Made by a program: the position numbers and the translations under genes. 64,000 bases of DNA from Amphiscolops sp. MND2022 (lineage: Eukaryota): the NCBI GenBank assembly GCA_964187785.1, contig OZ076409.1, positions 1,736,001 to 1,800,000 of the forward strand, read 5' to 3'. Shown here in pieces: positions 1 through 22,410 of the stretch; within the stretch, counting starts at the first letter, position 1; every line of letters starts with the position of its first letter. A model generated the notes under the pieces. It saw only the letters and a list, made by a program, of their open reading frames with translations. It was not told the DNA's origin and made no database searches.

Positions 1-14
1 GATGGAACGTAGGC

Positions 15-3000
15 ATGATACTCCGACACAATGCCAGGCATCCAGAGGACCCAACACCACTACCTCAATGGATAACAGAGTCACCAGATAACTACGCAAC
101 ACTCAAGCGACCCTTACCAGAATCAAAAACCGAACGTATCTACATCTGTGATAGAGACTACAGATGCGATCCCTGGGATGAACCAACCATTTATGATACT
201 AACAAACTCTCCTTCAAATTACAAGTCTCAAACCCCCAGGCTCAATCCACAGAAATTATGGACCTACCATCACCACCATCGCCAATTCTCAAAAGAACAA
301 CACCATCCCCAACAGTACCCGTCACCATCACGTCCACACCAATAGACGCTGAGAACATCATCTGCGTCGAGGACAAAACCATATGGGCGCATCAAGAAAA
401 ACGAAAACTAGAAAATGCTGATCCTTCAGTGACCCCTCCAAAAACCGCGCCCGTCACAACACTAATGAATGACGACGTAGAAATCACGGAATGTCCCTCA
501 AAATTGCCTGAAGATCTAGACACCATCAAGGAATTCATCCAACATGACAAAGACGACAACTACATCCCGTTAATGTCTTCCATCGCGCTCAAGAAGAAAA
601 AACAAATGCTTTTCCTACCAGTCGAATTCAACACGGTCAAAATCGACGCCTTAGTCGACTCAGGTGCGTACATTAACGCTATTAGCGAAAGGGACGCTGA
701 AAAACTCCGACAGCATGCCAGTCAGTGCATCGTCAATAAGGCACCCCCACCCCCTTTCAAAGTGCAGTATGCCAACGCCGAATTAGAACAACCACTTGCC
801 ACGTACACCCTACGTTTCAAAATAGGGGATTACACTTTTGAAGAAACATTCATCATCATGAATCAAACGTCATTCCCTATAATTGGATTAGCGTTCCTAC
901 TAAGCATGCCGCAATCCTTGACACGGCACAAGGAACCATTGACTTTCCTAAGATCCAAATCACGATGGCGCTCACAGACGAAAGACAAAAGTGCAATCCC
1001 AAACCCATCACGATAAAGACCGAAGCCAAGCATACAATCCCAGCGCACTCTACCCGAATCATCTACGCAACAATCCCTGTGAGTATCGAACACTCAATAA
1101 CGGGCACTATACAACCCCTACCACAATTCGATGAATGCGCGAAGGTAATAGTAGCTCCAGCGATTACAACAGCCAGAGACAAAAAGACACCAATAAAAAT
1201 CGCCAACACTACGGATTTCCCATACACAATAGCCACCAATACCAAAATGACAGAACTACAAATCCTGAAACCCGAAGAAACGAAAATGATCCGTCCAGTT
1301 GACATAGCCGCCCTGAATCTTCTCACCGAACATGAAGATGTGGTTACGTACATCAATGCACTAATGCAAGTAGAGCGGCCCGACGACAATGAAGAGAAAT
1401 TCTGGTTTCCAACCCCAGAACACCCCGGCAACGAACAGGAACATTCGCCCATACAAAAGCGAATCTTGAAAGAATTGCGAGACCTTGCCGAGCTAGAAAA
1501 ATTTGACCAAACCGAAAACGAAGAGTCTCGAAACAAATTTCTATCCATGTTCAAATGGACAGATTCACAGATTGCGAACAAAGACCGTGAAAACCTCGAG
1601 GATACCATTGTCGAATTCAACGACATCTTCGCTCGACACCGGCTAGACATAGGGATGAACACACAATTCAAAGTCAGCCTAACACCACAAGATGACAAAC
1701 CAGTCTACACACAGAGCCTACCCGTCCCAATCAACCTCAAAGAAGACCTGACCGTGGAACTGGCCCTCATGCATCGATACGGAATCATCACGACACTCCC
1801 CTTCTCCAAGTATGCCAGTCCCATATTTGCACAACGGAAACCCAACGGCAAACTGAGACTACTGGTGGATCTGCGCAAAATCAACGCACTTATAGCAGAT
1901 GACTACATCAACAACAACCACACTGTCAGCACCCTCTCAGATGCGGCACAACACCTAGCAGGGAAAAAACTGTTCTGCAAGCTTGACTGCTCCCAGGCGT
2001 ATCACTGCCTTCAAATGGCAGATCAAAGGTCAGTAGAGTTACTTGCTTTTAATTTTGCTAGTAGGACGTTTGCCGTCGACTGGCACAAGGACTAAGCAGA
2101 GCCCTATCAGCTTTTTCGAGCTTCATGCGAGAGTATCTGGACTCAGTTATCAAAGCCGACCAATGTGCACAATACGTAGATGACATTGGCATCGCCGCAA
2201 ACACAACGGAACAGCTCATACAGAACATCAGAGTAGTCTTCAAATGCATTAGAAAAGCAGGATTAAAACTAACCATCGAAAAATGCCATTTTGGAGTAAC
2301 CCAAATCGAATTCCTTGGCCGAACCATCACCCCCGACGGCGTAGCCCCGCAAGATCAAAAAGTCAAAAATTTCCTCTCCAAAGTCCGCTTCCCCAAATCC
2401 AAAAAAAAGTTCAAAAAATAATCGGCTTTGTTAACTATTACCGCAACTACATACCGCGCTTGTCAGAAAAACTCATTGGCATGTACGAACTTCTCAAAGC
2501 AGACTCCAAAATCAGAATTTCAGAAGAACTTGTCGATAACTTCAAAGAAATTAACGCCAGTTTAGCGGAAGCTTGTGGACTCGCACTCCGACAGCCCATA
2601 GCAGGAAAACAGTACGTTCTAATGACGGATGCAAGCTTTCGTGCATCAGGCTACGCCCTCATGATTGAGGAGAACGACGAACGCAAAATACTCTCCAAAC
2701 GAAAAACTTTCGCACCAGTAGCGTTTGGATCCCGGGTCTTTTCACCTGCACAACTGGAAATGTCCATCTACTACAAGGAGTTCTTAGCAATCTACCATGA
2801 CTTCCTCGAATACAGTCACATACTATGGGAAACAACAATCCCAACGCTGGTCTTAACTGACAACCGCTCATTAACTAGATTCTTCCAGACGAAAACGACA
2901 CCCCCTGCACTCTGGAATGCCTGCGACTACGTATTACAATTCAAGTTCCGAATTATGCACGTAGCTGGCTCCCAAAACACAGCAGCAGATTTCCTCTCAA

Positions 3001-5151
3001 GACTTGAACTTACACCGAAAGAAAAGGTACAACTTAAACTACGAGACGACATCCTAACGTCCCCAATTGAGGTTAATCTCCAATCATCAGATGTAGCCGA
3101 CGAAGAACAACTTTTCTTCCTACCAGACGAGGAAGATGAATCTGAACAAGAAATTTTTGCCCGAAAAGCACTCAGCAAGCGACGTGCTCTAGACGAACAT
3201 GAAAGAGAACTATCAACAAAAGTAACCGAAGTCATCAAGATACCACTCAACTCCGCAGTCTACTCTTTCGGTGCAATCAAGGAAAATGCACGGATAAGAA
3301 ACGAACAAGATGCAGACCCCCTCCTCAAAGCACTGAAACAACGGATCTCTTACGAAGAATATGACAAACACCTTCTCAAAACCGAACCACGAGGAAGAAA
3401 CCTATTACGACACGAAGAAAGGATCATAATGAAAGATGGAGTCCTGATGCGAAAGTACTACGGAGAAGACGGATCAGTCACCCATAACCAAATTATAATT
3501 CCAAAACACCTAGTTCCAGAACTCTTGTCCACCCTACATGGAAAAACAAATAAACACCCAGGAATCACCAAAATGATACAGGAATGCAGAGCGAAATATT
3601 ACTTCCCGGGTCTTGCACGCAAGATCAGAGCTTGGGTAACTAGTTGTCAGGATTGCATTGCCAATAAAAGAATTGACACGAGACAGATACGTCCCAAAAT
3701 GCTAAGCAACACTGAATTCACAATGGGACCAGAAGACTGCCTAGAAGTAGACATCCTACCAAACCTACCTTCCTCAAATGGATACCAACACATCATAACG
3801 ATGATGGATGTTTTTTCGCGTTACCTTTTCGCTCACCCGATTCAAGATATGACAGCAAAAACAGTCGCACGATGCATAATAGATGTCATGACACGACACT
3901 GCTATCTACCGACCGTCATTCTAACGGATAAAGGATCACAATTCAGATCAGAAGTAATCAACCAAATAACACAAACACTGGATATACAGATAAGCCACGC
4001 ATCGACGAAACATGCCCAAACGATTGGCATCCTAGAAAGAACTCATGCCTCTTTAAAAACCTCCCTAAAAATATCAACGGGAGAACGACGCTCTATGTGG
4101 CACAAATACGTCCAGATTGCAGTCATGAATCACAATACAAGCTACCATGAAAGCCTAGGCTGTGAACCTACAACAGTGTTTCACGGACGCATCCCGTACA
4201 ACATTTTGGACTTAAAACTTGGATTGAAACCTAACTGGGAAAAAGACAGCAACGAAGACCTAACGGACCAACTACAGAAACAAATAGCCGAAATACACCA
4301 AGCCGCCAAAGAGAACCTAATGCTGTCTTACCTCAAATACAAACAGTACTATGACAAGAAAGCAACGGCTACACCGCTCAAAGTCAACGACTACTGCTAC
4401 GTCCTTAATCCGAAGGCAGACAACCAGTCAATGAAATTCGCCTTTAAAGATTGCATTTGGACTGGACCCTACATAGTAGTCAAAGTACTCTCGAACAACA
4501 ACTACGTCGTACGTCGCACAGGAACTAGATATACTCAAACCCTCCATAGAATTCGCCTAAGGCTATATGCGCCCAATCAGCGAGTACCTGACGTAACAGT
4601 CAGAAGGAAAGATTACCTTCCAGACCCAGAGGTTAAAACAACCCACAATGATTGGTACGCGCAAGCTTGGGAAACCGAATTCGGAGAAGTTCTGTTCGGA
4701 AATACCACACGAAACGCCCCTGAAGAAACTAGTCACAGAAATCGTGGACACAACAGGAAATGACGAAAGCACAGCAGAAAATGGTGTGGTTGAAACAGCG
4801 ACAAACGAAATAACAACGGAAAATGATGTGGTTCAAACAACCACAAGCGAAACTATAACGGAAAGTGATGTGGCTCAAACAACCACAAATGGGCCTACTA
4901 CAGGGGATAAAACATTCTCCGACAACGTCACGTCATTCAATTTAGATGTCAGTGACAATCCGTATATACTAACCCCACCACCGATATAAAGCCCCCCCAA
5001 AACTCCTGAAATACCGCCTATTGTCGTTGGATACAATCCTAGAAAAGTCGGAAGATACAACCTGAGACCTAATCCTAGACCTAATGCGAATCCTGACTTT
5101 AGAATGCTTGACTCAGCTACTACGGAGGACTCACGGTCAACTCAAGACTAG
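15..5151 (+). pseudogene. pol: Gypsy pol polyprotein (aspartic protease, RT, RNase H, integrase), frameshifted
   Basis: Protease ALVDSGA; RT YASPIF..RKPNGKLRLLVDLR, KLDCSQAYH, YVDD; RNase H TDAS/TDN/ADFLSR; integrase H..HPG..C..C, TDKG, E and GPY motifs. Frameshifts near ~900, ~2075, ~2405, ~4725; stop at 4987-4989. Confidence 0.95.
4777..4903 (+). repeat. 3 x 42-bp coding tandem repeat in the post-integrase tail
   Basis: ENGVVETATNEITT / ENDVVQTTTSETIT / ESDVAQTTTNGPTT. Confidence 0.75.
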
Positions 5152-5310
5152 ATGAAAAATCAGCATACCAAACCGAACCGGAATGGCTACGTTAAAATTT
5201 GGAACATTCTAAATCTACAAAACCAATACTACGGATACTGAGCGTACCCTAAAACAACAGAAAAGGAAAATAATTCAGGACAAAGATATACAAAAATCCA
5301 TCAGTTCCAA

Positions 5311-8300
5311 TCAATTCTTCGAAGGTTTCTTAATTCTATGGACCACAGTAGGATCCTTCTTATCTTCCTTCGCCTGAGGCTTCTTCTTACTCTTCTTAGA
5401 AAACGAAGAACTGACGTCCAGTGCAGAAAGCAGATCCTCCTGAGATTTCCTTTTTGAAGGACAGCTAGAGCCCTCAGTGAGATTGCCACTCCGTCTCACA
5501 TTTCCACCTTTTGTCGACTTCTCACTCTCTGACCCAACAGACGAACTAGCAGCACTTTTTGACTCCCGATCTACGCGTGCCAAACGATTAGCCTTGTTAC
5601 AAGCATCGTAATGACTGTCGAAATATTTGCGCTTTTCAACCAAGAAAGCAGTATACAAAGAACCATGCCTTTTTACGAAAGAATCCAACTTTGAACCACA
5701 GAACTCTTTCCACAAGTCGAAATTAGCAGCCACGAAAAATGTCCCAGCATTCAACACAGCATCACGAACTGCTCTCATCGTATGGTCACTGAACAGCGAC
5801 TGATGTGAGTATCCCGCACTCAAAACGTGAGACTGCACAAGCAACAGACAGTAATGGAAACTCTCCCAACTTAATGCACTGCCACTGAGATCGAAGACAA
5901 CTGAAGGATACGTACTGCGTGGGACTCCAACAATAAGGCAACACACTTTAAACACGCGTAACAACCGATGACGTGCTTGAAAACTGAAATCCCGGAGCAA
6001 GAATTGGGAGACATCCGTGATAGTTGCGGACGTTCCGTCTGAATCAGAATGAAGCCTTCACTGCTCCACCACAAAACTTGTGTACTCCTCCTGTGCCGCT
6101 TTAGCCTCATCTGACAATAACGCTCCACAATCCACCAAGATTCCACAAAGACCGGCAAACAAAGTAAAAGCGATCGCATTATCGCCTTCTAACATCATGG
6201 CAGGACAGAAGCTGTATAGTCCCTTTGAAACCACCGGTGTCGCAGCTGAGGTTTTCAGTAACAGAACAACCACCCGATCAATGAATTCGCGACACCGCTG
6301 ACGAAACGTCACGAATTCGCTCGTCTTCCCTGCGGCCAGCACCTTCCCAAATTCGTAGTTCTTCAAGAACCCGTCAATAGGGGCAACAGGGAACCTACTC
6401 AGCTTCTGAACGTCCATGTACTCCTCCCACTCCATAATGCCAGGCAACTTGCTTGTGACCCGCGTCTTCAACAATAGGCAATAAATGAAGTTGCAAAGTT
6501 CACCATACCCGTGGAAAGCATAGTCTTTACGTGCCGGACTCATCTTCTCAAAGTTGATATGGACTAAAACAATACCAACACATTACTACGTACACAACGA
6601 TAAGAAAGAAAATCAAGTACAATCAACCAAACGAAAGACAGGCGATAAATCCAACAAACACAATCACGAACGAAACAGGTGCACATCAACAAACGCAGAA
6701 AATACTTACATGTATCGACCATAAACCGGAGTAAGCCGAAACGATAAGTAATCAAATTGTCGGCAACCAGCAAAGAGTCAGTCCCGTGCATCTAAAAATA
6801 AAAGGAAAACTTTCCCCTTATGACCCGGAAATAGCACGCATAGATAACACAAACCGACTTAAAGACAGAGACGACACAGCCAATAAAACAACAAGAAGGC
6901 ACTCACCCTATCTGAAGATCCCTTTGCTTCCAAGTTCCCAGTGCACCGGATGTAAGGTCTAATAGAAGGCCAAAGCTCTATCAAGTCTGTTAACAAGGGC
7001 CGAAGATCACAGAAGTCAACGAAGCCTTGACGTACACACTTGCGTAGAATGGGCCTGTCCTCCGTCCATGCTTCATACAATGCGCTCTTCATACGGTGAA
7101 CAGTATACTCCAACAGAGTGCTCACCTCCACCATTCCAAAGACGTCCTGGTGGGCCTGACGAACACACTGAAGGATTCCTTCAGGTCCAAACTGTTCATA
7201 CACAATAAAACGCCGATCATCAGTACGACTGTCCTCCAACACGCGCAACAAAGACGGACTTCCTCCACGAAGAGTCAAGGGCAACCTCTCTGATTCCAAG
7301 CTACACACAATGCGAGCTAATGGAACTAACTCGGGTCTAGGCATGGGCTGTTCTAGAGGTTCACACCCGATGCATACCTTTTTCAAATGCTCTTCATCCC
7401 AGAAAAGCACAAAACACCGTTTGAATGACGCATCCTGCTCGTATTGGATGCTGTATTCCCGAAATGACGTCGCACCACTTAGCACTTGGCGAAACACCCG
7501 CGGAGCAATCCCCTGACACAGAATTGACTAAAACAAAGCACCTACTATCAAGACACCTACTACAATACTAAAGACAAAAAAAAGAAAGAAGAGGAAAAAA
7601 AACGAGAAACGCCCACAAAACCTACCATAGTCTCTGAACGGCTCCACCCCAGAGTGAACAGCGGCTCTTGCTTGCCCAAGGAAGCCAGGAAATACCCCCA
7701 CAGACGTCGCAACAACGAAAAGTCACCGCCACTGCGCAGCAGATCACAAAAGCCGGACACGAACGTCATGAAGGGCACTTTTGAATCAACTCTCGCATGC
7801 TTCGGCAGCAAATCTTCTGGGAAGGGGAATTCAGGACCCAAATCAACAAACGGTCGGGCTCGATACTCAGCTTCCTGAGTCGCTGACAACTCCATCGGCT
7901 CCATCAACTTGTTGTAGACAGGAAGCTCCATATGAACACGATATGTCACGTCCGCCGCCCAGTGTCCCTTTGAACCAAAGTGACGCACAAACTCCGCAGC
8001 TCCGTGCGACCCAATCTTCACGTCGCGTTTGCAAATGCGACAATAGAAGAATTTTGCATCGCCACGCTTTGCACCAATAACGAAGTCACCGTAAACTGGA
8101 TTCAGCGACAGCATTCGTCTATGCAACAACTTACGACTGCCGTACTTCTTCTCTTCGTTGCGGGTCCGAGTCGAGTTTCCACAGTATCGGCAAGTGCACT
8201 GAAACCTACAACAACCAGAAAACAACCGATCTTCAATACCAACTAGTCAACTCACCATAACAGATGACCGGGAAAGACACAACAACTTACCACTCTCAAT

Positions 8301-9179
8301 ACTCCGCATCGTTCGCTCTCTCATCTCAGTCATCAACTGACGGCCAAATTCCGCAACCTCGGGCGACACTGGCAAAGGGTTTCCAGAGAATGCCAACGAA
8401 ACATCTTCACAACTGCTCCACCCTCCCTGGATAAGTTTGCGCAAGCTTGGAGTACTAGTCTGAGCACACTCACCAGCCGGGGGAGGAGTACCAAATTTCA
8501 CCTTCCTTTTCCGGAAAGGGAACGTACGTGAACCTAAAACAGAAGCACACGCAAAATAAATAATAGTGAACAGTGACAAGGTTACATGAACACTAGTTTT
8601 GTTACTACCGCTTGCTTCTTGCGTCTCCTCATCACTCGTATCACTCCGTTCACTTTCTTGGGCAGGGGGATCTGCCTCACCTCCTTGAGGCCCAACGGAC
8701 TGCCCAACTGATTGCTCAACTGACTGCTCAACTGACTGTTCAACTGACTGCTCAACTACGACTGGTGTGGACAAAGTAGCAGCAGGTTTGCACAAAATAG
8801 AAGCCACTGAAGGAAGCAATCCAGCAGAAGGCCCAGAAACAGGACAGACATCAGTCGGTTCCCCATCAGGAGGAATAGCGGTTTCCGCAGTAGAGCCGTG
8901 GACAACACCAATGGTATTCCCTGGTTGAGTTACTGAAAATCAAGATCTGGATTCAGACGCGTCGGATATTCGGGTAAGACTATAGAGGCTGATCACCAAA
9001 ATATAGTCCAATTACCCATGAAGGTCAGAAAGATTTTACCAACTTGAAGCAGAATGCGCAGCCTCAGCCTCCGAAACAAATACGTCAACGTCACTCCAAA
9101 CGTAGTTGGACTCGTGCCCACTGACGAATCCGGACTTAGGCGCCGGAGTAAGAGAAGGAAGGTCCGAGTCTTCGTCCAT
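5311..9179 (-). pseudogene. Multi-exon antisense accessory gene of the gypsy element, encoding a BED-type zinc-finger protein (slightly damaged copy)
   Basis: GT-AG introns 8534-8608, 8206-8290, 7513(or 7528)-7625, 6792-6906, 6564-6709; the last three join the listed ORFs in frame. Motif FFYCRICKRDVKIGSHGAAEFVRHFGSKGH. In-frame TGA at 6058-6060 and a probable frameshift near 8150; 5' start (ATG 9179) tentative. Confidence 0.8.
8697..8760 (-). repeat. 12-bp tandem repeat encoding (EQSV/GQSV)n
   Basis: ctcaactgactg repeated ~5 times. Confidence 0.8.
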
Positions 9180-9449
9180 TCTGAATTATCTCAAGACAAC
9201 AATCTGGAAAAAGAAAAGGAAAACTACGTCACCCATACGTAACCACCACTAGAAGGAAAAATTCTAACAACGTCAACCCTACGTAATTGAAAAATCACCT
9301 AATCTTCAACTTCAGTGAAAGCCTACTATGGCATTGAAAGGAACAAAACGTTTCCAAAGATACTACAGATGAATAAAAGATTCATCAAGAAGTTCTGAAG
9401 AAAAGATGTCATTTCGAAAATTACGGAATATGAACGTAGAATATTCAAG

Positions 9450-9764
9450 AAGAAATCAATGACGTCATAACGTCATTGACCGAGAAAGAAACGAAACGTA
9501 AAAATAGAAGCTTTTAATATGAGTTTCAACCAATCACCGCGCAGCAAGTAAACTTTCCATTCCCCGACTTGAGACGCACCGAAACGAAAGCGGAAAAACC
9601 GACCAATAAAATTTCGATGAAAATTACGAAAGGAAAGAACTCGAAACGTTCATTTGTCGTCCAAACCTGCAGCTTGACCAGCATAAAATTCAGAATATTC
9701 TCACCGCGCAATTTTTCATCAAGCAAGAAATAATCTCAAAAATTCCCCCGTCACAGTTACGAAA
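9450..9764. promoter_or_regulatory. Putative bidirectional promoter between the divergent accessory genes
   Basis: Lies between the minus-strand gene start and the plus-strand ATG 9765; TGACGTCA at ~9460, CCAAT at ~9530 and ~9603. Confidence 0.4.
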
Positions 9765-10636
9765 ATGAACGGCTACTCCTTAGTCATTGACATTTCATCA
9801 GACGAAGGAATGACCAGCACGCCAATCAAGACAGTGCCCGCTAATATGGTCGGAAAACTAAATATAAGCGACTCATCACTAGAAGCATGGCGGTCCTCTG
9901 ACGCCGAACTGGACTCAACTTTTGAAACAGACCGAGACGTAAAGAAAACGGAACCCACACCCAAAAAGAAAAAGCTCACTAAAGTTTCATTTAATCTGCC
10001 GCCCGCAAGAGGCTCAGTTTCGGACTCCGACAGTTACTATGAGGAGCCAGAATCACCATGCCAGTCCTCTTCGTTGAAACCTGCAATGCCGTTAAAAGAA
10101 AAATTCAACATTCCTCAGTTAGGAAATGAAAGAGCACCGGAAACGATCAAAACGGGGAATAAACACGAGCTATCAGTAATGGAGCTGGAAGCTGCATATG
10201 ACCTAGACATAGAAGACCGCAACTACTTTGCGGCTGTGGACCGTGGTAGGCACGCACCGAAGATAGCTCCTCTGCTAAAAAAAACCGTTACCCTAACAGT
10301 CCCCTGAATGATCTAAATGAGAAAAGCAAGCCGCCCGAAATTTCTCCTGAAGAAATGCAATATCTGGAAAAAATGGTACTCGATCTAGAAGAAGAGGAGA
10401 AGAAAATCGAATACATGAAAGCGGGAAGAGGACGTGGCCCCCACCAAGTGCGAAAATACATCAGCCGCCCTTCAATTGTAGTGAAAAAAGAAATCCCGCA
10501 TTGCCACGGTCTACCGTTGTCTCTTGCTTCAAGAGGGGCCCTGTCACGACCCGCTCCCGGTCGTAATTTTACTTGCTGCTCAGGGATACCAGGATTCGGC
10601 AGAGGTCGCGGACAAGGGCAAAGTAAATACTTTTGA
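9765..10636 (+). pseudogene. Sense accessory ORF (Ser/acidic N-terminus, basic stretch, RGRG-rich C-terminus) split by one frameshift
   Basis: ORFs 9765-10307 and 10355-10636 overlap in open frames around the A-run at ~10277-10285; PKKKKL and GRGRG motifs. Confidence 0.55.
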
Positions 10637-10974
10637 ACCTTATTAAACTAATCAAAATTCTACTTACAGTACAGCTAAATAAGCGCGAATAATTTCCCAA
10701 ATACGGAATTCAACGTAAACATTACGGAAGAATTTCAGAAATGACTTTAAACTAGCTAAAACTTCCGGTCTAATGTTTTCACACGCAACACCGCTTTATT
10801 TCCGGTTTTATCTTCTGAGTTTTCCATTCCAATCTAAATACTAAATAATTTTACAAACGGGATCATTTTGGCGCTCCACACTAAAATGAAAACGCAGAAA
10901 CGACATTTAACTCCGAGATCCCAACGGAGTCCATAAGATCTAAAATGAAAGGACATACAAAAACAGATTGGAAA

Positions 10975-12789
10975 TGTATTCGAATACTAGAATAGTTGTT
11001 AAATATCCACTTAAAACCTTAGCTTAGTGATTTTAAGTAAATATTCACAACGCGATGACAGCGTCACTCAACTAGGCTAGCAACGGGTGTTTCTGTTTTT
11101 ACGGACCAATAGCGTCACTTGCCGGCGGAATTATCTAAACTCGCACCAGTAGAATTACGCTTAGTTGCCCCTAGCAACGCTTACTAGCTAAGAAAAGAGA
11201 ATAAAATCGCCTACGCTCTCCGTTTTCACTCCGCTTGCTACCGCTGCTCAGCTATAAGCAATCTTAATACATACGGAGCACTTACGGAGCAGATTGTAAA
11301 ATTGTATTCCGCTGCTTGGCTATAAGTAATCTTTATACATACGGAGCATCTACGAAACAATTCATGAAGTGGTAGTAATGAAACAGTAGCTAAAACGGAA
11401 ACCAAATAAGGGTTTTTCGAATCGACGCATTCTAACAGTTCCAGAAACAACTTTACCCAAAAAAGCTGTACTGTAAGAAAGAATTGAAAGTTCACAGTGT
11501 ATTTTAATCCTGCATCGTAAAGGTGATACGTTAGCGCCACGTTGCACGAGACACCCTTTTAAAAGATTAACACCGAATATTATATCATTACGTTGTGTCG
11601 ACGTAGTTAAAAGGACAACGTGGGGATAACGTTTGGTGCTAGTTGTGCTAAATAATCCTTCCAATTAATGCAGGTAGAGTTGGAAATGCCATGAAGCTCC
11701 CTTTGTACTGTGAACAACTCTCATTTCGATGTTTTTGTACTAATGTTGAAATAACAACATCAGAAGTTTATACCTCGTGATTTTCGTTACAATTATCATT
11801 GTGTTTGCATTTTGTGCAGTTTTGTATTAAACAAGTGTTTTTGTCATGTATAATAATGGTTCTAAAGTGTTCTAGTGAAATCCTTTCAGCATCATTTATC
11901 CTCCCTAATAACTAGACATTTTCATTCACTAAAATTCATAATTCCGTTTCATTTCCGTCGTCATTTTTGAGTGTCATTCTTTTGCATCGAATCTAAATTT
12001 CCTAACTTCGAAGCTGATGGAAATGTCAGCTACACTTCTATTTTGCCGCAATTTTGAAGATCAAACAGGAAATGGATTGCCTGAACAAAAATGATTTCAA
12101 CAAAGTTTTACGGAACACCGACGCAACTAGGAATTTTGATACCTGATTTTATGACGCGGGACTGAAATAATATGAATCATTAGCGCTTTTTGTTGAACAA
12201 ACTTGATTTTTACGATACCTAGGAATTTTTAGGTGAGGAACAAATGATGCTGGGAAGGTATAAATATGTAGAACATACATGTAAGTTAGTTAGTCTTTTA
12301 ATCTGCTTAGTAACAACTTGTTCTGTTCCGTTTCCAAAACGCGTTAGAAAAACCCAAATCTTTAAGAAGAGTTTAAATTTTCCAAAGAATAAATCCTCTC
12401 TCTCTCTAAAATGACTACTAGAAGTCAGAAAAGGAAAGCCGTAGCCGAGCTAGTGTCAGGAGACTTTGAAGCTTCTTTAGCTGAGAACAATCCTACTGAA
12501 AATCTAACAGCTAGTTCCAGTAAAAACCCCAGATTTGAGCTTGAAAACCTGGAGGAGATGAAAACCACTCTAAGGAAAGAGACCATGTCTGATTTAACGA
12601 AAATACTCGCTGAAAATCAAAAAGAAATGCTTAAGCTGATAGCACCCTCAAACAAGAAGCAAACTATTCACATGAATACTCAAGACTCAGACTCCGAACC
12701 AGAGAATGTTTCCGTAGCAAGGACGTCTACTCCAATTAAAATCCACACTGCGACTAACTCTAAAACGACACCAGTGAATAGTCGTAACA
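10975..12789 (+). repeat. Putative 3' LTR (~1.8 kb)
   Basis: Starts TGTA after a purine-rich stretch and ends CGTAACA; TATAAATA at ~12259; contains a gag-like ORF that degrades right after 12789. Partner LTR is not in the window. Confidence 0.5.
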
Positions 12790-12818
12790 CTGGTAGCTCC
12801 CAAAAAAGCACTTTTTAA
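12411..12818 (+). CDS. Truncated gag-like N-terminus lying in the putative LTR
   Basis: MTTRSQKRKA start with a coiled-coil-like segment (LEEMKTTLRKETMSDLTKILAENQKEMLKLI); ORF ends ~9 codons beyond the TAACA boundary. Confidence 0.5.
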   Translation: MTTRSQKRKAVAELVSGDFEASLAENNPTENLTASSSKNPRFELENLEEMKTTLRKETMSDLTKILAENQKEMLKLIAPSNKKQTIHMNTQDSDSEPENVSVARTSTPIKIHTATNSKTTPVNSRNTGSSQKSTF

Positions 12819-17291: not shown

Positions 17292-20200
17292 TGTTGTAGT
17301 CAAAAACACTGAGCTAACAAGAATTGAATTTTATCGAATCAACTGTAGTATGTAAAATCAACTTGATGCAACGTTTTTCATTTGTGTAAATTCGACGACG
17401 TATAAAACAGGTACTTTATTAAATTTTTGACAATGTTTATCAATTAAACGTTAGCATCGTTCTTTTTTATTTTTGACCTTGGCCAATGGCCTCGGCCACA
17501 CCTGCCTCACTACGGGATAAAGTTCGTACTATCTAAATGTAATTATGTTTACGGTACAGATGTTACTAACAGAAAAGTTTGGGTTAAAGCTACCGCCGAA
17601 AAGATTGTTATAAGAGAATGTTTACAGGAACATGTACTAAATATATTGTATGTGTTTATGTTCAGTTTCAGATTCTGATGGTTTCTAATTGTCACCTATT
17701 CATCAATTTCTTTCTGGGGCATTACTTCAAAGTTGAGGATAGCTTCTAACTCCCTTCGAATTTGTTCTTCTGTTTGCGACTCGTTAATTTGCGCCGCTCC
17801 CTCTGGCTCCTCGATGATTTTCCATAACATTTTATACGTACCAGTCTGGGCGTCGTTATGGTCGTTGGCTTTGGCGTGAATTGTTTGTCAGTAGTTTTTT
17901 CTGTACTTTCTTCACTTGTTGTTTCTTGTTCTATGTTTTCGTTGTCTTCGTCAGAAGAGCTATCAAGAATGTCCATATTTTTGTCTGGTAATCCCGCCAG
18001 GGATTTTCTCGGTTTTATCTGTTTTCTTGGAGAGCGGTTTGTTTTGGTGGGATGCGTGTTTTGTAATCCTTTGCTGCAAAGAATTTATGTGGTTTGTTAA
18101 CCTCATTTTCGCTTCTTTCTTCGGCGTCTTTTAGTGCTGCTACTTTTCTCTCCAATGAATGGCTGTTTCCTCTTTTTGTGATGCGCTTTTTTTGGCAAGG
18201 TCTCGTTTTGATAGCACTTGGTGTCTTCTGTTTGTCTCCACTGTGACGGTGTGGCTCGATTCGGAAACGATGTTCCCTGGCGTTTTGAATTGGCCTTTAA
18301 GTTTTGTGTTTTGGGTTCAATCTTATGAGGAAGATCGTGGAGTCATCGTCCTTTGGAAGTTCGTCTGGAGAGAGCATCTGATTTTAGTCGTTTTCTAAAC
18401 AGTGTTTTGGTCTCTCAGTTATTATTTCTTTACGGTATTTGCAATACGACTAAACACCTGTTTGAAGGGGGTATTCTTATTGGCCGCCGCGGCCGTTCTT
18501 AGAGCGAATAAGAGACGCGCTAAACCTGCGTTTCCTTTTTCGGTGATAATTGTTTTATCGGCCCTTAATCTCTCATTAATGGTTCTAATTAATCGTTCTA
18601 CTTTACCATTTCCGCGGTGGTAGTAAATTGAACATTCGATATGCAGAATGAATTGTTCTTGGCAAAATTATTTAAACACTTCGCCGCGAAAGATAGTTAA
18701 GGAATCCGTGCGGATTCTTTTTGGAATACCGAATTGTGCGGCGTGTGTGTGTGTTTAGAAAGTTTACGACCCGTTCTGTGGTAGGTTTTGCTACAAGCGC
18801 GGCGTTCGGCCAAGACATTGTGGGCAGGACTGTCCCAGTAGGACGATATCACCACATGTCTGCTACTGCTTGTAGCATCGAGTCACGTCCTGGATGACCC
18901 CAGTGAAGGAAGGTTCCAAAAATTGGCTTTGTGAGCTCTTCTGGAATGACTATCTCATCCCCTGTAGATGAAATCGTTTTTGTCCAATCGGAATTCGTTG
19001 AACCTCTGTTGCCAAACTTTCGGTAGTTTGTTTATCGTCTGTTAGTTGTGGTTTTTTAGAACGTCGATAATTGATTTCAATAGTGGGTTGTGTTCGTACG
19101 TCCCTGCCAGGATGTTTTCTCCAATCCGTTGAATGCTGGAGTTGAGGGGAATTGTCGAGGTTTTATCTGTTATTGCGAGAGTTCTAGGTCTTCGGACCGG
19201 CTGTTTGATTGCGATTTCATGCAGTATGCGTGTCTCGCTTCAATCGCGCTTGTTTGCCAAGACAATTTGTTCGCTGAGTGCGTCTTTAAATGTTTGCTTT
19301 ATTGATGGCGTAGCGTCACGTTCGTTCACACCTTCGTTGGTTAAATTCTCGCTCGCATCGCGATGTGTGTGTGCGTTTAGAAAGTTTACGACCCGTTCTG
19401 TGGTAGGTTTTGCTACAAGCGCGGCGTTCGGCCAAGACATTGTGTTTTTGATTTGCAGAAGTCGCCGCGGAATGTCGCCTGATTCGTCAGGAGTGAATTC
19501 GTTCATTCTGAAACATCATTATCAATGAAACCTTCGTCCCATTATGTACTTGATTTTACAGATTTTTCATTTATCGGTGATGGGGTTCGAGACAAATAAT
19601 CAGCGATGCCTAACGTTCTGTCCGGTCCGTGTATTACCTCAAAATCAAAGGGATAAAGACCATCTACCCACCGTGTGAGCCTGCTAGAGTATGTCTTATT
19701 CGCCTTTTGTCCCTTTAATTCTGTTGCTAATGCTTTATGGTCTGTTGTTATTTTGAATGGGACTCCGTACACGTAGCTGCGAAAATATTCAACTGACCAT
19801 ACTATCGCAAATATTTCAGGTTCATTTATGGAACATTTTGATTTTAATTCAGTCAAAAAGCGTGATGCCAATGAAATTGGTTTCCACTCGTTGTTTTCTT
19901 CTTTCTGTAATGCAGCTCCCAGCCCAGACTTATTTGCATTGCAAATGATCCCCAAGGGGCTTTGTCGTTTGAAGTGATTCAGCATGGTTGCTTTCCTAGT
20001 TTCTTCATTTACTGTTTCACCCCAGAAATTTTTCACCCCAAGACTTTTCTTGTTCTTCACCCCAATTCTAATCATTACCTTTCTTTATTATATTTCGGAA
20101 TTGAAAGCACAGCTCTGCTAAATTGGGGATGAATTTGTTATATTGGTTAACGACGACCAGGAACGATCTGAGTTTTTTTAAGTTTGTTGGTTTCCACTCA

Positions 20201-22410
20201 AATTTGTCCGCTGCGGATGTGAACTTTTCTAATTTCAAACATATGTTTGCTTCGACGAGTCTTTTCAATACTTTTTTTACTTTCTTGATGTGTTCATCTT
20301 CTGTTCCTTGTGTGACATCAAAAATATCATCTATAAAAGCAAGTGTATTTGTGATACCTGCCATTGTTAAGTCCATCATTCTTGGATATTATGTAGGCAT
20401 GGTTTTGAGACCGTAGAACCCTGTTATGAATCTGTAAATTCCTGTCGCCGCGCCCCCGATTACTTGGAAGTTGCATTGTCGTGACGTGGCTTCGCTCAGT
20501 TCTACTTGTCCGTGTGCATAAGTCAAATCCAGTGCAGTCAAACAGGTCTTCCTTGGGCGTTGTTCCACATGTTCTGCAATCATAGCCATTAATTTGTCCA
20601 GACTCGGCCTTGTGTTTTTATCCTTAACAACAATTTTATTCAATTCCCTTGCATACAGGGCTATTTTGACGCTCCGATGTTTCTTGACGGTTATCTTTGT
20701 GGGCTGTAAGAAGACATCCTGTTTGATGTCCTGTACTTTAACATTTTGGCCTTCTTGCAATAGCCGATTTATTTCCCTTTTTACGGGTTCTTGTAGTTGG
20801 ATTGGTGCGCGGCGGCCCTTCTGTTGTTTTGTTACCGTTCTTTCGTGGAGCCTAGCGTGTATTATATGATATTTTATTCTACCCTTTCTAGCAAACAGGT
20901 CGGGGAATTCCGCCTGCATTTTGTTTACTAATAGACATGCTGGCAGTGTTTTAGTTATACATTTTACTGCATTGAAAAACTTAGTTTTCGTTCGATGCGA
21001 TACTGTAAATTTTTCAACCATTCTCTGCCGAGAAATGACTTTGCTCCCGGTCGTGCCACCAAGATTCTCGCTTTTCTTATGTATTTGTCGCCCACCTCCA
21101 TACATAAAAAATGTATCCCAGTAGATCCCGAATCGATCATTTGACAAATTGTTTTTCGATTTATTTTGCCTTTCATCATGAATAGGGGTGATTCACCACC
21201 ATCGATGCCAAGAACGTATTGTTCTTCTTTTTCTTGTTCGTCATTTTTGTCTGATTCATCATCAACCCAATTTACCCGCCGCGGTGGTTGTTTCTGCGAA
21301 GTTTGTGGTTCTTGCTGTTTTCGGCACACACGACCATTGTGACCCAAAAATCCACATTTGTTACATTTCTTGCCTATTGTGGGCACCCAGAAATTCACAT
21401 TTGTTACATTTCTTGCCTATTGTGGGCATACCTTCAGATGCTGTATTGAGAAATTTTCTGTTCCACAATGTAAACAGTCCTTCTTTTTCGTTACGACGCA
21501 TATGGGTTCACTCTTTATCGAGACTTTGGTTTATCCCTACAGTTTTTGGCGTAATGTGCCCTCCTCGTACCCAATTGGGAAATCCAATGCATCTTTTGGG
21601 GATGCTTTCGGTTCTGTACATAGTTTCTTTTGTACAGCCAGGTTCTTCATATTGAGAATGAAAATATCGTGAACGAAGCTTTCTGTTTGAGCCTCAAAAT
21701 TACATTCCGCCGACGCCATTGCGTTCATTGAGTGCCAGAATGGCTCCCATGTCTTTGACGGCATTTGTTTCCTGGATAGAAACCTGAAACGATCTAGTGT
21801 TCCGTTCCGTTTTGAATCGAAAGTACTAATGCAATTGTCCAGTAATACTTGCAGTGTTATTTCGGATATTTTGACTTTTGGATATTTGTCGGAAAATGTC
21901 TTCCGTGCCGCAGCCCCCAGAGATAAGAAAAAGTACGCTGACGCACTTACGCTCTGCCACTGGGTGGTCAAGATTTTTCTTTAATGCTTTATTTCAATCA
22001 GCCTCATTTATCACAGTCCTCAATACCTCTGCAATAGAGATTGAATGATTTGCAGTCATCGCCACGGCGAACAAATCGCACCATTTCTTCCATTCGATGC
22101 TTGGCTTTTGGTGAGGGTCCTTCCAATACAGCGCCAAACAGATACTGCTGATTTCCCATTTGTGGTTTTTCCAACGTCAGTATCAAAAGCTCGCAGCGCC
22201 ATGTTATAGTCAAAAACACTGAGCTAACAAGAACTGAATTTTATCGAATCAACTGTAGTATGTAAAGGCAACTTGCTGCAATGGTTTTCATTTGTGTCGT
22301 TTCGACGACCTATGAAACAGGTACTTTTTTAAATGTTTAACAATTTTTATCATTTAAATGTTAGCATCGTTCTTTTTTGTTCTTGACCTTGGCCAATGGC
22401 CTCGGCCACA
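17292..22410 (-). mobile_element. Complete decayed Ty3/gypsy element (Mag-like)
   Basis: 209-bp TG..CA LTRs at 17292-17500 and 22202-22410 (~20 mismatches by hand count); TSD gggtt/gggtc; PBS TGGCGCTGCGAGC (tRNA-Ser-like) at 22189-22201. Confidence 0.93.
17746..22190 (-). pseudogene. gag-pol of the decayed gypsy element
   Basis: Zinc knuckle CNKCGFLGHNGRVC, protease IDSG, RT fragments (LDLTYAHGQ, FIDD), RNase H (TDHKAL, ADYLSR), integrase remnants at ~18450-18950; many stops and frameshifts. Confidence 0.9.

Follow-up and report, generated by a model that had tools for sequence, protein, structure and literature searches.

How does a gene broken up by introns persist in an element that multiplies through an RNA copy of itself? 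Animal long terminal repeat (LTR) retrotransposons usually consist of gag-pol, some of them with an env gene in addition, and a spliced gene on the opposite strand is not part of that plan. The question is raised by a 64,000-nucleotide stretch of the genome of Amphiscolops sp. MND2022 (assembly GCA_964187785.1, contig OZ076409.1, positions 1,736,001 to 1,800,000 of the forward strand), hereafter the window, in which a Ty3/gypsy retrotransposon carries a series of minus-strand open reading frames (ORFs) lying after pol and before its 3′ LTR. The original prediction, made from the letters of the sequence, had taken these ORFs (5311-6057, 6058-6582, 6859-7527, 7560-8246 and 8247-8939) for pieces of one antisense gene with a BED-like finger, possibly derived from a hAT transposase. 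The analysis described here indicates, with a probability of roughly 75%, that positions 5311-9179 are an accessory gene borne by an animal Ty3/gypsy clade and passed on by the mechanism proposed below. The five ORFs are real and are joined by GT..AG introns, whereas the proposed ancestry of the protein has fared less well.

The gene model comes from an alignment of four diverged copies with the window's minus strand, in which codon-like conserved blocks alternate with brief, weakly conserved stretches of variable length that start with GT and close with AG. This yields seven exons and six GT..AG introns, all on the minus strand. Exon 1 (9044-9179) opens with an ATG at 9179-9177 and contains the motif SGF[VL]SGH, which is common to the subfamilies. 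It is followed by intron 1 (8933-9043, 111 nt), which exceeds every other segment of the locus in conservation, and by exon 2 (8609-8932, 324 nt), which is fast-evolving and of low complexity, with 12-nt repeats at 8690-8749. Intron 2 (8534-8608, 75 nt) is by chance open in frame in the window copy and leads into exon 3 (8291-8533, 243 nt) and intron 3 (8206-8290, 85 nt). Exon 4 (7626-8205, 580 nt) encodes the zinc-finger motif C-x2-C-x16-H-x5-H, read from the sequence at 7962-8042, and is separated by the T-rich intron 4 (7528-7625, 98 nt; 78-108 nt in sister copies and 100-173 nt in divergent ones) from exon 5 (6907-7527, 621 nt), which specifies a conserved middle domain of 207 aa. Intron 5 (6792-6906, 115 nt), exon 6 (6710-6791, 82 nt) and intron 6 (6564-6709, 146 nt; 146-171 nt in other copies) precede exon 7 (5311-6563, 1253 nt, stop codon at 5313-5311), which codes for the helical domain at the C-terminus, together with a long helix and a tail of basic character.

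The introns named at the outset are thus largely, if not entirely, correct. Those at 6906>6791 and 6709>6563 were placed exactly, and for the third the donor at 7625 was right; its acceptor was put at 7512, while the conserved acceptor joins at 7527. The AG at 7513 occurs only in the window's subfamily and is absent in all four divergent copies, and the 15-nt difference is in frame. Introns 2 and 3 had been missed and intron 1 had been left undefined. Both suspected defects of the window copy are confirmed. The TGA at 6058-6060 is a premature stop specific to this copy, being a sense codon in the four divergent copies and in both uninterrupted sister copies that were translated, and the frameshift suspected at about 8150 corresponds to a missing base near 8155, with exon 4 measuring 580 nt as compared to 581 nt in eight of nine sister copies and 582 nt in the remaining one. 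With a premature stop and a frameshift, the window copy is dead for the antisense gene. The product of uninterrupted copies is 1079 aa long, rather than roughly 1000 aa.

Evidence that the gene is more than an accident of one locus comes from its relatives in the same genome. A DNA search of the genome, in which 40 of 1,646 first-look candidates were scored, gave at least 74 matches from those 40; ten of them are full-length with 95-100% identity, and among the rest identity falls as low as 69%. A set of 14 copies (the window, nine sister copies and four diverged copies) was used to follow the splice sites. GT..AG is retained in 83 of 84 intron instances, and the lone exception, the intron-1 donor of one subfamily, has its GT four bases downstream together with a one-base deletion in exon 1, so that the frame is kept. 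Across these copies the introns are 62-173 nt long, while exon 6 measures 82 nt in all 14 and also in four of four copies of deeper subfamilies. The spliced frame is uninterrupted in two of the nine sister copies, and in one subfamily with only 52% protein identity a copy is likewise open over the 3,224 nt that were aligned. This subfamily is listed at 38 places with 92-100% identity, of which seven, including the query copy itself, lie at 99-100%, indicating that it was recently active.

The substitution pattern points in the same direction. Ratios of nonsynonymous to synonymous change (dN/dS) were estimated by the Nei-Gojobori method, with codons set by an uninterrupted copy (L002). Comparison of L002 with C11_375, from a 78%-identical subfamily, gave a dS of 0.77, a dN of 0.10 and a dN/dS of 0.13 for the whole gene, and by part 0.06 for exon 4, 0.10 for exon 5, 0.13 for exons 6-7 and 0.25 for exons 1-3; comparison with C10_319, from a 74%-identical subfamily, gave 0.16 for the whole gene. 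Overall, exons 4-7 show a dN/dS of about 0.06-0.15 in comparisons with a dS of 0.6-1.2, with exon 4 at 0.06-0.07 where synonymous sites are unsaturated. Exons 1-3 together are looser (0.25-0.58), and exon 2 alone reaches about 1.2 in the most distant comparison (L002 with C1_941), in which its alignment is unreliable. In the two most distant subfamilies the synonymous sites are saturated (proportion of differing synonymous sites 0.73-0.83), the corresponding nonsynonymous proportion in exons 4-7 being 0.10-0.33. Introns 2-6 lie at Jukes-Cantor distances of 0.44-0.86. The coding sequence is thus under strong purifying selection and introns 2-6 drift in both sequence and length. No long sense-strand ORF spans 5311-9179, so it is on the antisense frame that the constraint acts. 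Because GT..AG is kept in all instances save one and dN/dS is so low in exons 4-7, the pattern of splice sites and substitutions is far beyond chance.

The gene belongs to the gypsy element, as had been proposed. When the 10 kb upstream (L011) are joined to the window, 5311-9179 is found to be enclosed by a Ty3/gypsy element of 16.2 kb, which starts at -3439 and thus outside the window. Its two LTRs, at -3439 to -1164 (5′, in L011) and 10542-12789 (3′, plus strand), are 2.28 kb each, 96.7% identical to one another, and both start with TG and end with CA. The 5-bp target-site duplication CTGGT stands at both ends of the element (12790-12794 at the right-hand end). The region of interest therefore lies inside one unit that transposed as a single piece. 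The first bases after the 5′ LTR are TGGTGACAGG, and the polypurine tract AAGAGGGG (10531-10538, plus strand) is found three bases ahead of the 3′ LTR. The gag-pol region occupies positions 1-4763 of the plus strand, with several broken frames in this copy, and its Pfam matches (gag-asp_proteas, RVT_1, RT_RNaseH, Integrase_H2C2 and rve) give the order protease, reverse transcriptase, RNase H, integrase up to 4763. Three tandem 42-nt repeats, identified by a repeat search, cover the end of the pol frame (4752-4877, plus strand). The strand composition runs continuously from gag-pol into the region of the antisense gene (AT skew about +0.25, GC skew about -0.17, the sense strand being rich in A and in C) and weakens outside. 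Wnt genes are specific to animals, and matches to the Wnt family in this genome are well above the cut-off (best E 3e-45). The host is therefore an animal and the lineage an animal gypsy lineage, as the original prediction had it.

The association with pol holds beyond this copy. Of 40 listed pol places, 19 have an antisense-gene match directly downstream on the opposite strand among the matches listed. From six further places, 2.2 kb of downstream sequence was taken, and in all six the opposite strand contains exon 7 together with the final part of exon 5. Among these 25 of the 40 pol places, none was found to be without the antisense gene. The order of pol (plus), antisense exons (minus) and a further sense ORF (plus) is seen in four of four diverged copies, with LTR-like sequence around the whole. 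At four of four loci of deeper subfamilies, exons 4, 5 and 7 follow in the same order opposite the 3′ end of pol, whose encoded integrase C-terminus is 71-94% identical, and GT and AG are present at the same three intron positions. Protein identity between these deep subfamilies and that of the window is 35-51% for exon 7, 40-58% for exon 5 and 48-66% for exon 4. With one deep-subfamily query, all 104 of the own-genome candidates that were scored, out of 8,477 first-look candidates, proved to match. The gene thus occupies the same place and orientation in every copy examined, across at least seven subfamilies.

The encoded protein appears to represent a family without known relatives. The part specified by exons 1-3 is acidic, rich in Ser and Thr and poorly conserved save for short motifs. 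Of the nine rows that cover it in alignment A2, seven preserve the finger motif of exon 4, as do three of four deep-subfamily copies. The motif is preceded by the aromatic residues F-F-Y and followed by a well-conserved stretch; exon 5 is conserved as well. A structural model of exon 7, based on a 30-row alignment, has a mean predicted local distance difference test score (pLDDT) of 72.8, exceeding 90 over residues 10-215. It comprises a domain made up entirely of helices, a helix of 49 residues at 290-338 and a disordered Lys/Ser-rich tail. The model of exons 4-5 is of low confidence (mean pLDDT 46.9; 15 rows, with a template ORF that reads through intron 4) and shows strands followed by helices in exon 5. 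Exon 7 matches 478 clusters (formed at 50% identity) at E ≤ 1e-3 in a library of 1.84 billion proteins, 251 of them at E ≤ 1e-10, and the best 150 of the 478 are all 443 aa or shorter and hence exon-sized. Twenty clusters that were looked up are all without a name and come from ENA, except for one Logan member that retains intron 4. The database ORFs P0001 and P0002 likewise run through intron 4, their exon ends being otherwise the same. Many of the 20 clusters hold tens of near-identical members. The window's own genome contains a 100% match to at least one cluster, and another is only 36% identical to its best match there and probably derives from another organism. A scan of metagenome contigs found no relatives of exon 5, and a search of the ESM Atlas with exon 5 gave no usable match.

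Where might such a protein have come from? One possibility, compatible with an element-borne gene but on balance unlikely, is that it descends from a captured hAT transposase, now very diverged and catalytically dead, which would serve as a sequence-specific DNA-binding or targeting factor. With such an origin, a BED-like finger would be followed by an RNase-H-like half, then by a helical insertion domain and finally by a C-terminal part. The order of parts seen here, an N-terminal CCHH finger, a strand-rich segment and a large helical region, could be colinear with that of hAT transposases and their domesticated relatives ZBED, FAM200 and GTF2IRD2. The spacing of the finger is BED-like, with aromatics ahead of it, and a true hAT of the same genome has C-x2-C-x15-H-x4-H. 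The motif fits the zf-BED signature, C-x2-C-x(n)-H-x(3-5)-H with upstream aromatics, a pattern which on its own does not separate BED from other long-spacer C2H2 fingers. In the low-confidence model, exon 5 follows the order strand-strand-strand-helix. The best hhalign alignment, itself non-significant, sets a Trp-containing helix of the protein opposite the hAT "TRWNS" block. Of the 30 neighbours that the exon 7 domain has in ESM feature space, just two are named sets, Dimer_Tnp_hAT (0.84) and FAM200-GTF2IRD2-like (0.83), with scores which, being below 0.9, count as leads only.

Other results speak against this origin. Neither zf-BED (PF02892) nor Dimer_Tnp_hAT (PF05699) was matched at E ≤ 10 in 45 members (15 of A2, 30 of A1). 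The finger that had been called BED-like is accordingly present, but the exon 4 translations and the 15 members of A2 do not bear out membership of zf-BED, nor do the 30 members of A1 bear out hAT descent, which is left with three weak, non-significant leads. When A1 and A2 were compared by hhalign with hAT profiles (A3 and A4, one of four rows and one of three, built from the genome's own hAT ORFs, and A7, from 23 ZBED1-like proteins), the probabilities were 0.08-0.14%, and thus not significant. None of the 150 listed genome matches to PF05699 above the cut-off lies at a locus identified as a copy of the antisense gene. No DDE catalytic triad was identified in the protein, which lacks a reliable alignment on which to place such residues, and no terminal inverted repeats were found around the gene. 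The antisense gene differs from hAT transposases, ZBED, FAM200 and GTF2IRD2 in that it is not recognised by the hidden Markov models or by profile comparison and in that a retrotransposon carries it. As a separate observation, canonical hAT transposons are numerous and readily detected in this genome (for example L022-L026), with at least 150 matches to PF05699 above the cut-off among 2,215 first-look candidates. Their BED fingers are clear, and among named proteins they are closest to those of the ZBED1-like type.

A less probable proposal is that the product handles RNA, a finger of the U1, matrin or JAZ type binding either the unspliced genomic RNA or double-stranded RNA formed by sense and antisense transcripts, with export, packaging or protection as the outcome. 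The only Pfam matches of the protein are to long-spacer C2H2 fingers, namely zf-C2H2_ZN292 (four of 15 members, best E 0.027), KIN17, SF3a60_Prp9_C, zf-met and zf-C2H2_jaz, several of which presumably belong to an RNA-binding class. All of these are sub-threshold, and indeed fall far short of what Pfam requires. The search recognised no domain for RNA binding, and the H-x5-H spacing would suit BED equally. Rev and the CERV protein of the Caenorhabditis elegans element Cer1 are precedents for a function of this kind, and one report shows that an LTR element can encode a protein for export of its genomic RNA (PMC10309623).

Two further alternatives are very improbable. If the ORFs had arisen by chance in a non-coding antisense unit whose RNA alone matters, as a trigger for double-stranded RNA or PIWI-interacting RNA, non-coding antisense transcripts such as those of micropia, TART and IAP would offer a parallel (PMC7264820); against this stand a dN/dS of 0.06-0.15 at a dS of 0.6-1.2, exon lengths that are held against introns of varying length, a donor shift so compensated that one subfamily keeps the frame, and protein similarity that persists between subfamilies at an identity of 35-50%. 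The idea of a host gene, or of an insertion without relation to the element that is nested within a single copy, was rejected, since the gene is multi-copy, is always linked to pol in one orientation, lies inside the bounds set by the LTRs and the target-site duplication with the strand composition of the element, and, by repeat search, has no inverted repeats at its flanks.

The reading that remains best supported is that of an accessory gene which travels with its element and is split by introns that the element's own life cycle leaves untouched. The gene would be transcribed leftwards from the region at 9180-9764, which it would share head-to-head with a sense ORF (ORF3), and the host spliceosome would remove the six introns from the antisense mRNA. 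Read in the sense direction, as in the genomic RNA, these sites would appear as CT..AC and would go unrecognised, allowing the introns to pass reverse transcription intact, and every new copy would therefore inherit them. The protein would then enter the nucleus, bind nucleic acid by way of its finger and act in trans, to the benefit of the element. The product would most likely be a nuclear regulator. As for its precise task, the first candidate, put forward tentatively, is that it governs either transcription of the element itself or silencing by the host; handling or export of the genomic RNA seems improbable, and the targeting of integration a little more doubtful still.

Several observations weigh against this reading. 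Most individual copies bear lesions, that of the window among them. Apart from the sub-threshold long-spacer C2H2 fingers, no Pfam family was matched at E ≤ 10 by any exon, profile searches of the PDB gave no significant match, and a search with the exon 7 model by Foldseek against the PDB and BFVD, together with VIA-align, returned no confident fold match. The finger is a single motif, from which DNA binding and RNA binding are not separable. On the strand of the gene, no AATAAA or ATTAAA is found within 1 kb downstream of the stop codon, and in the subfamily of the window, intron 1 has a weak donor (AA followed by GTTGGT). A pyrimidine tract with an AG, conserved in all five subfamilies compared, is situated about 25 nt ahead of the antisense ATG (at about 9203, minus strand); it may be the acceptor of a further intron, preceded by an exon of the 5′ untranslated region, in which case the start site would lie farther upstream. 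Transcription of the antisense gene, its start site, splicing and polyadenylation are all inferred.

The 585-bp region between the antisense ATG and the ATG of ORF3 (9180-9764) shows 63-73% mean pairwise identity between subfamilies and contains ATTGG/CCAAT and TGACGT(CA) motifs as well as a palindrome at 9454-9481. Because the antisense gene and ORF3 lie head-to-head, the layout suggests that this region is a candidate internal bidirectional promoter. ORF3 itself (9765-10636, plus strand; further copies at L002:46-915(-) and L018:9050-9952(+)) is split by a frameshift in the window. Four of nine sister copies and one diverged copy contain it as an unbroken frame of 290-301 aa. Identity between subfamilies is 49%, and ORF3 matches no Pfam family. 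Its N-terminus contains the invariant sequence LVIDISSDE, which resembles a SUMO-interaction motif, and its conserved C-terminus is rich in Arg and Gly (...SRPAPGRNFxCCxGIPxFxRGRG).

Intron 1 behaves unlike the remaining introns. Across five subfamilies, its mean pairwise identity is 85% and 68% of its columns are invariant, as compared to 51% for the best exon, and its Jukes-Cantor distance is 0.09 as compared to 0.44-0.86 for introns 2-6. Examined as RNA, intron 1 has no match in Rfam, its folding z-scores of -1.55 and -0.96 are not unusual, and compensatory change is seen in none of 36 predicted pairs. These neighbouring features could be drawn together into a two-gene module with an internal bidirectional promoter, maintained by the clade over a long time, in which the antisense gene, taken from a captured hAT transposase, would now specify a sequence-specific nuclear factor that regulates or targets the element, the small ORF3 would be its sense partner, and intron 1 would act as a control element in cis. 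So specific a combination is improbable; if true, a retrotransposon would have domesticated a DNA-transposon protein.

The 3′ part of the element, moreover, does not always share the history of pol. In one subfamily (L018/L019, C1:94146000-94165000), pol is 91% identical to that of the window, while the antisense gene, ORF3 and the LTRs are only about 65-80% identical, the switch point lying near 5226, just beyond the antisense stop codon. This indicates that the 3′ module recombines between lineages. At another locus (L010), an antisense gene of the window's type is combined with an ORF3 nearer to that of this other subfamily.

Among known systems, the aORF-3R genes of plant Tat-lineage Ty3/gypsy elements (Retand, gene23 of maize Grande, rice RIRE2) are some of the nearest (PMC11963269, PMC7264820). 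There as here, an antisense accessory ORF is situated in a long region between pol and the 3′ LTR in most copies of the lineage, and in Retand this region often contains tandem repeats (same sources), as do positions 4752-4877 of the window with their three 42-nt repeats. In both papers, the word "intron" occurs 0 times and spliced antisense transcripts appear only as future work (PMC11963269, PMC7264820). The present gene differs from the plant aORFs in its animal host, its six conserved introns, its much larger product of 1079 aa and its head-to-head sense ORF3. The Pfam domain of plant aORFs, TRP28 (PF04195), was matched neither in the window nor in the exon translations.

The HBZ gene of human T-cell leukaemia virus 1 (HTLV-1) is similar in being an antisense protein-coding gene of a retroelement, and the gene described here is predicted to resemble it further in being spliced, in encoding a nuclear regulator and, as it is antisense, in having its expression uncoupled from the 5′ LTR. 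The antisense transcript of HBZ is known to be spliced. HBZ is described as a nuclear regulator (PMC11963269) and as a small bZIP protein whose gene has a single intron and a promoter in the 3′ LTR (PMC7264820). The present gene is unlike HBZ in that it has six introns, a CCHH finger, a putative internal promoter and no sequence relationship, and no bZIP family is among the Pfam results for its protein. Animal LTR elements with extra genes downstream of pol form a third group, as exemplified by the env of errantiviruses and by the env, DEDDy and GDSL ORF3 genes of bdelloid rotifers (PMC5408684). The rotifer paper contains the word "intron" 0 times and uses "antisense" only for small RNAs (PMC5408684). 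In contrast to the ORF3 of rotifer elements and errantiviruses, the main extra gene here is antisense and has multiple exons. Full-text searches of the open literature, outside of which fall subscription journals and reports of the Repbase type, yielded no account of an animal LTR retrotransposon whose antisense gene contains introns.

What the locus offers, then, is a clade that was active recently, has first-look candidates by the thousand in a genome of 1.07 Gb, and carries a large, multi-exon gene. Such a gene could outlive retrotransposition only because it is antisense, which would make it a naturally occurring parallel to the retrotransposition reporters that are built around an antisense intron. 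It would also extend to animal retrotransposons a complexity reminiscent of retroviruses, with accessory genes, an internal promoter and spliced antisense messages. Its function, once found, could reveal how the element controls its expression or evades silencing by the host. For annotators, it is of practical importance that public protein sets hold hundreds of unnamed, exon-by-exon fragments which stem from prokaryote-style gene calls.

Some minor features of the locus and its relatives complete the description. In one subfamily (L020, C5:12830000-12839999), a GT...AG stretch of about 64-67 nt that is absent from the other four subfamilies lies inside exon 3 and may be an extra intron; this is also the subfamily with the shifted intron-1 donor. 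A fragment of a second LTR retroelement is present in the window at 19542-21192 on the minus strand, with RT_RNaseH matches at E 3e-23, within a stretch of reversed AT skew (about -0.28 at 18-22 kb). Elsewhere in the genome, matches to the antisense gene are regularly spaced at 13.8-14.3 kb (C13:16515582/16529543/16543502; C149:24162/37934/51708; C1:94136240/94150511), a spacing that suggests tandem arrays of elements with common LTRs.

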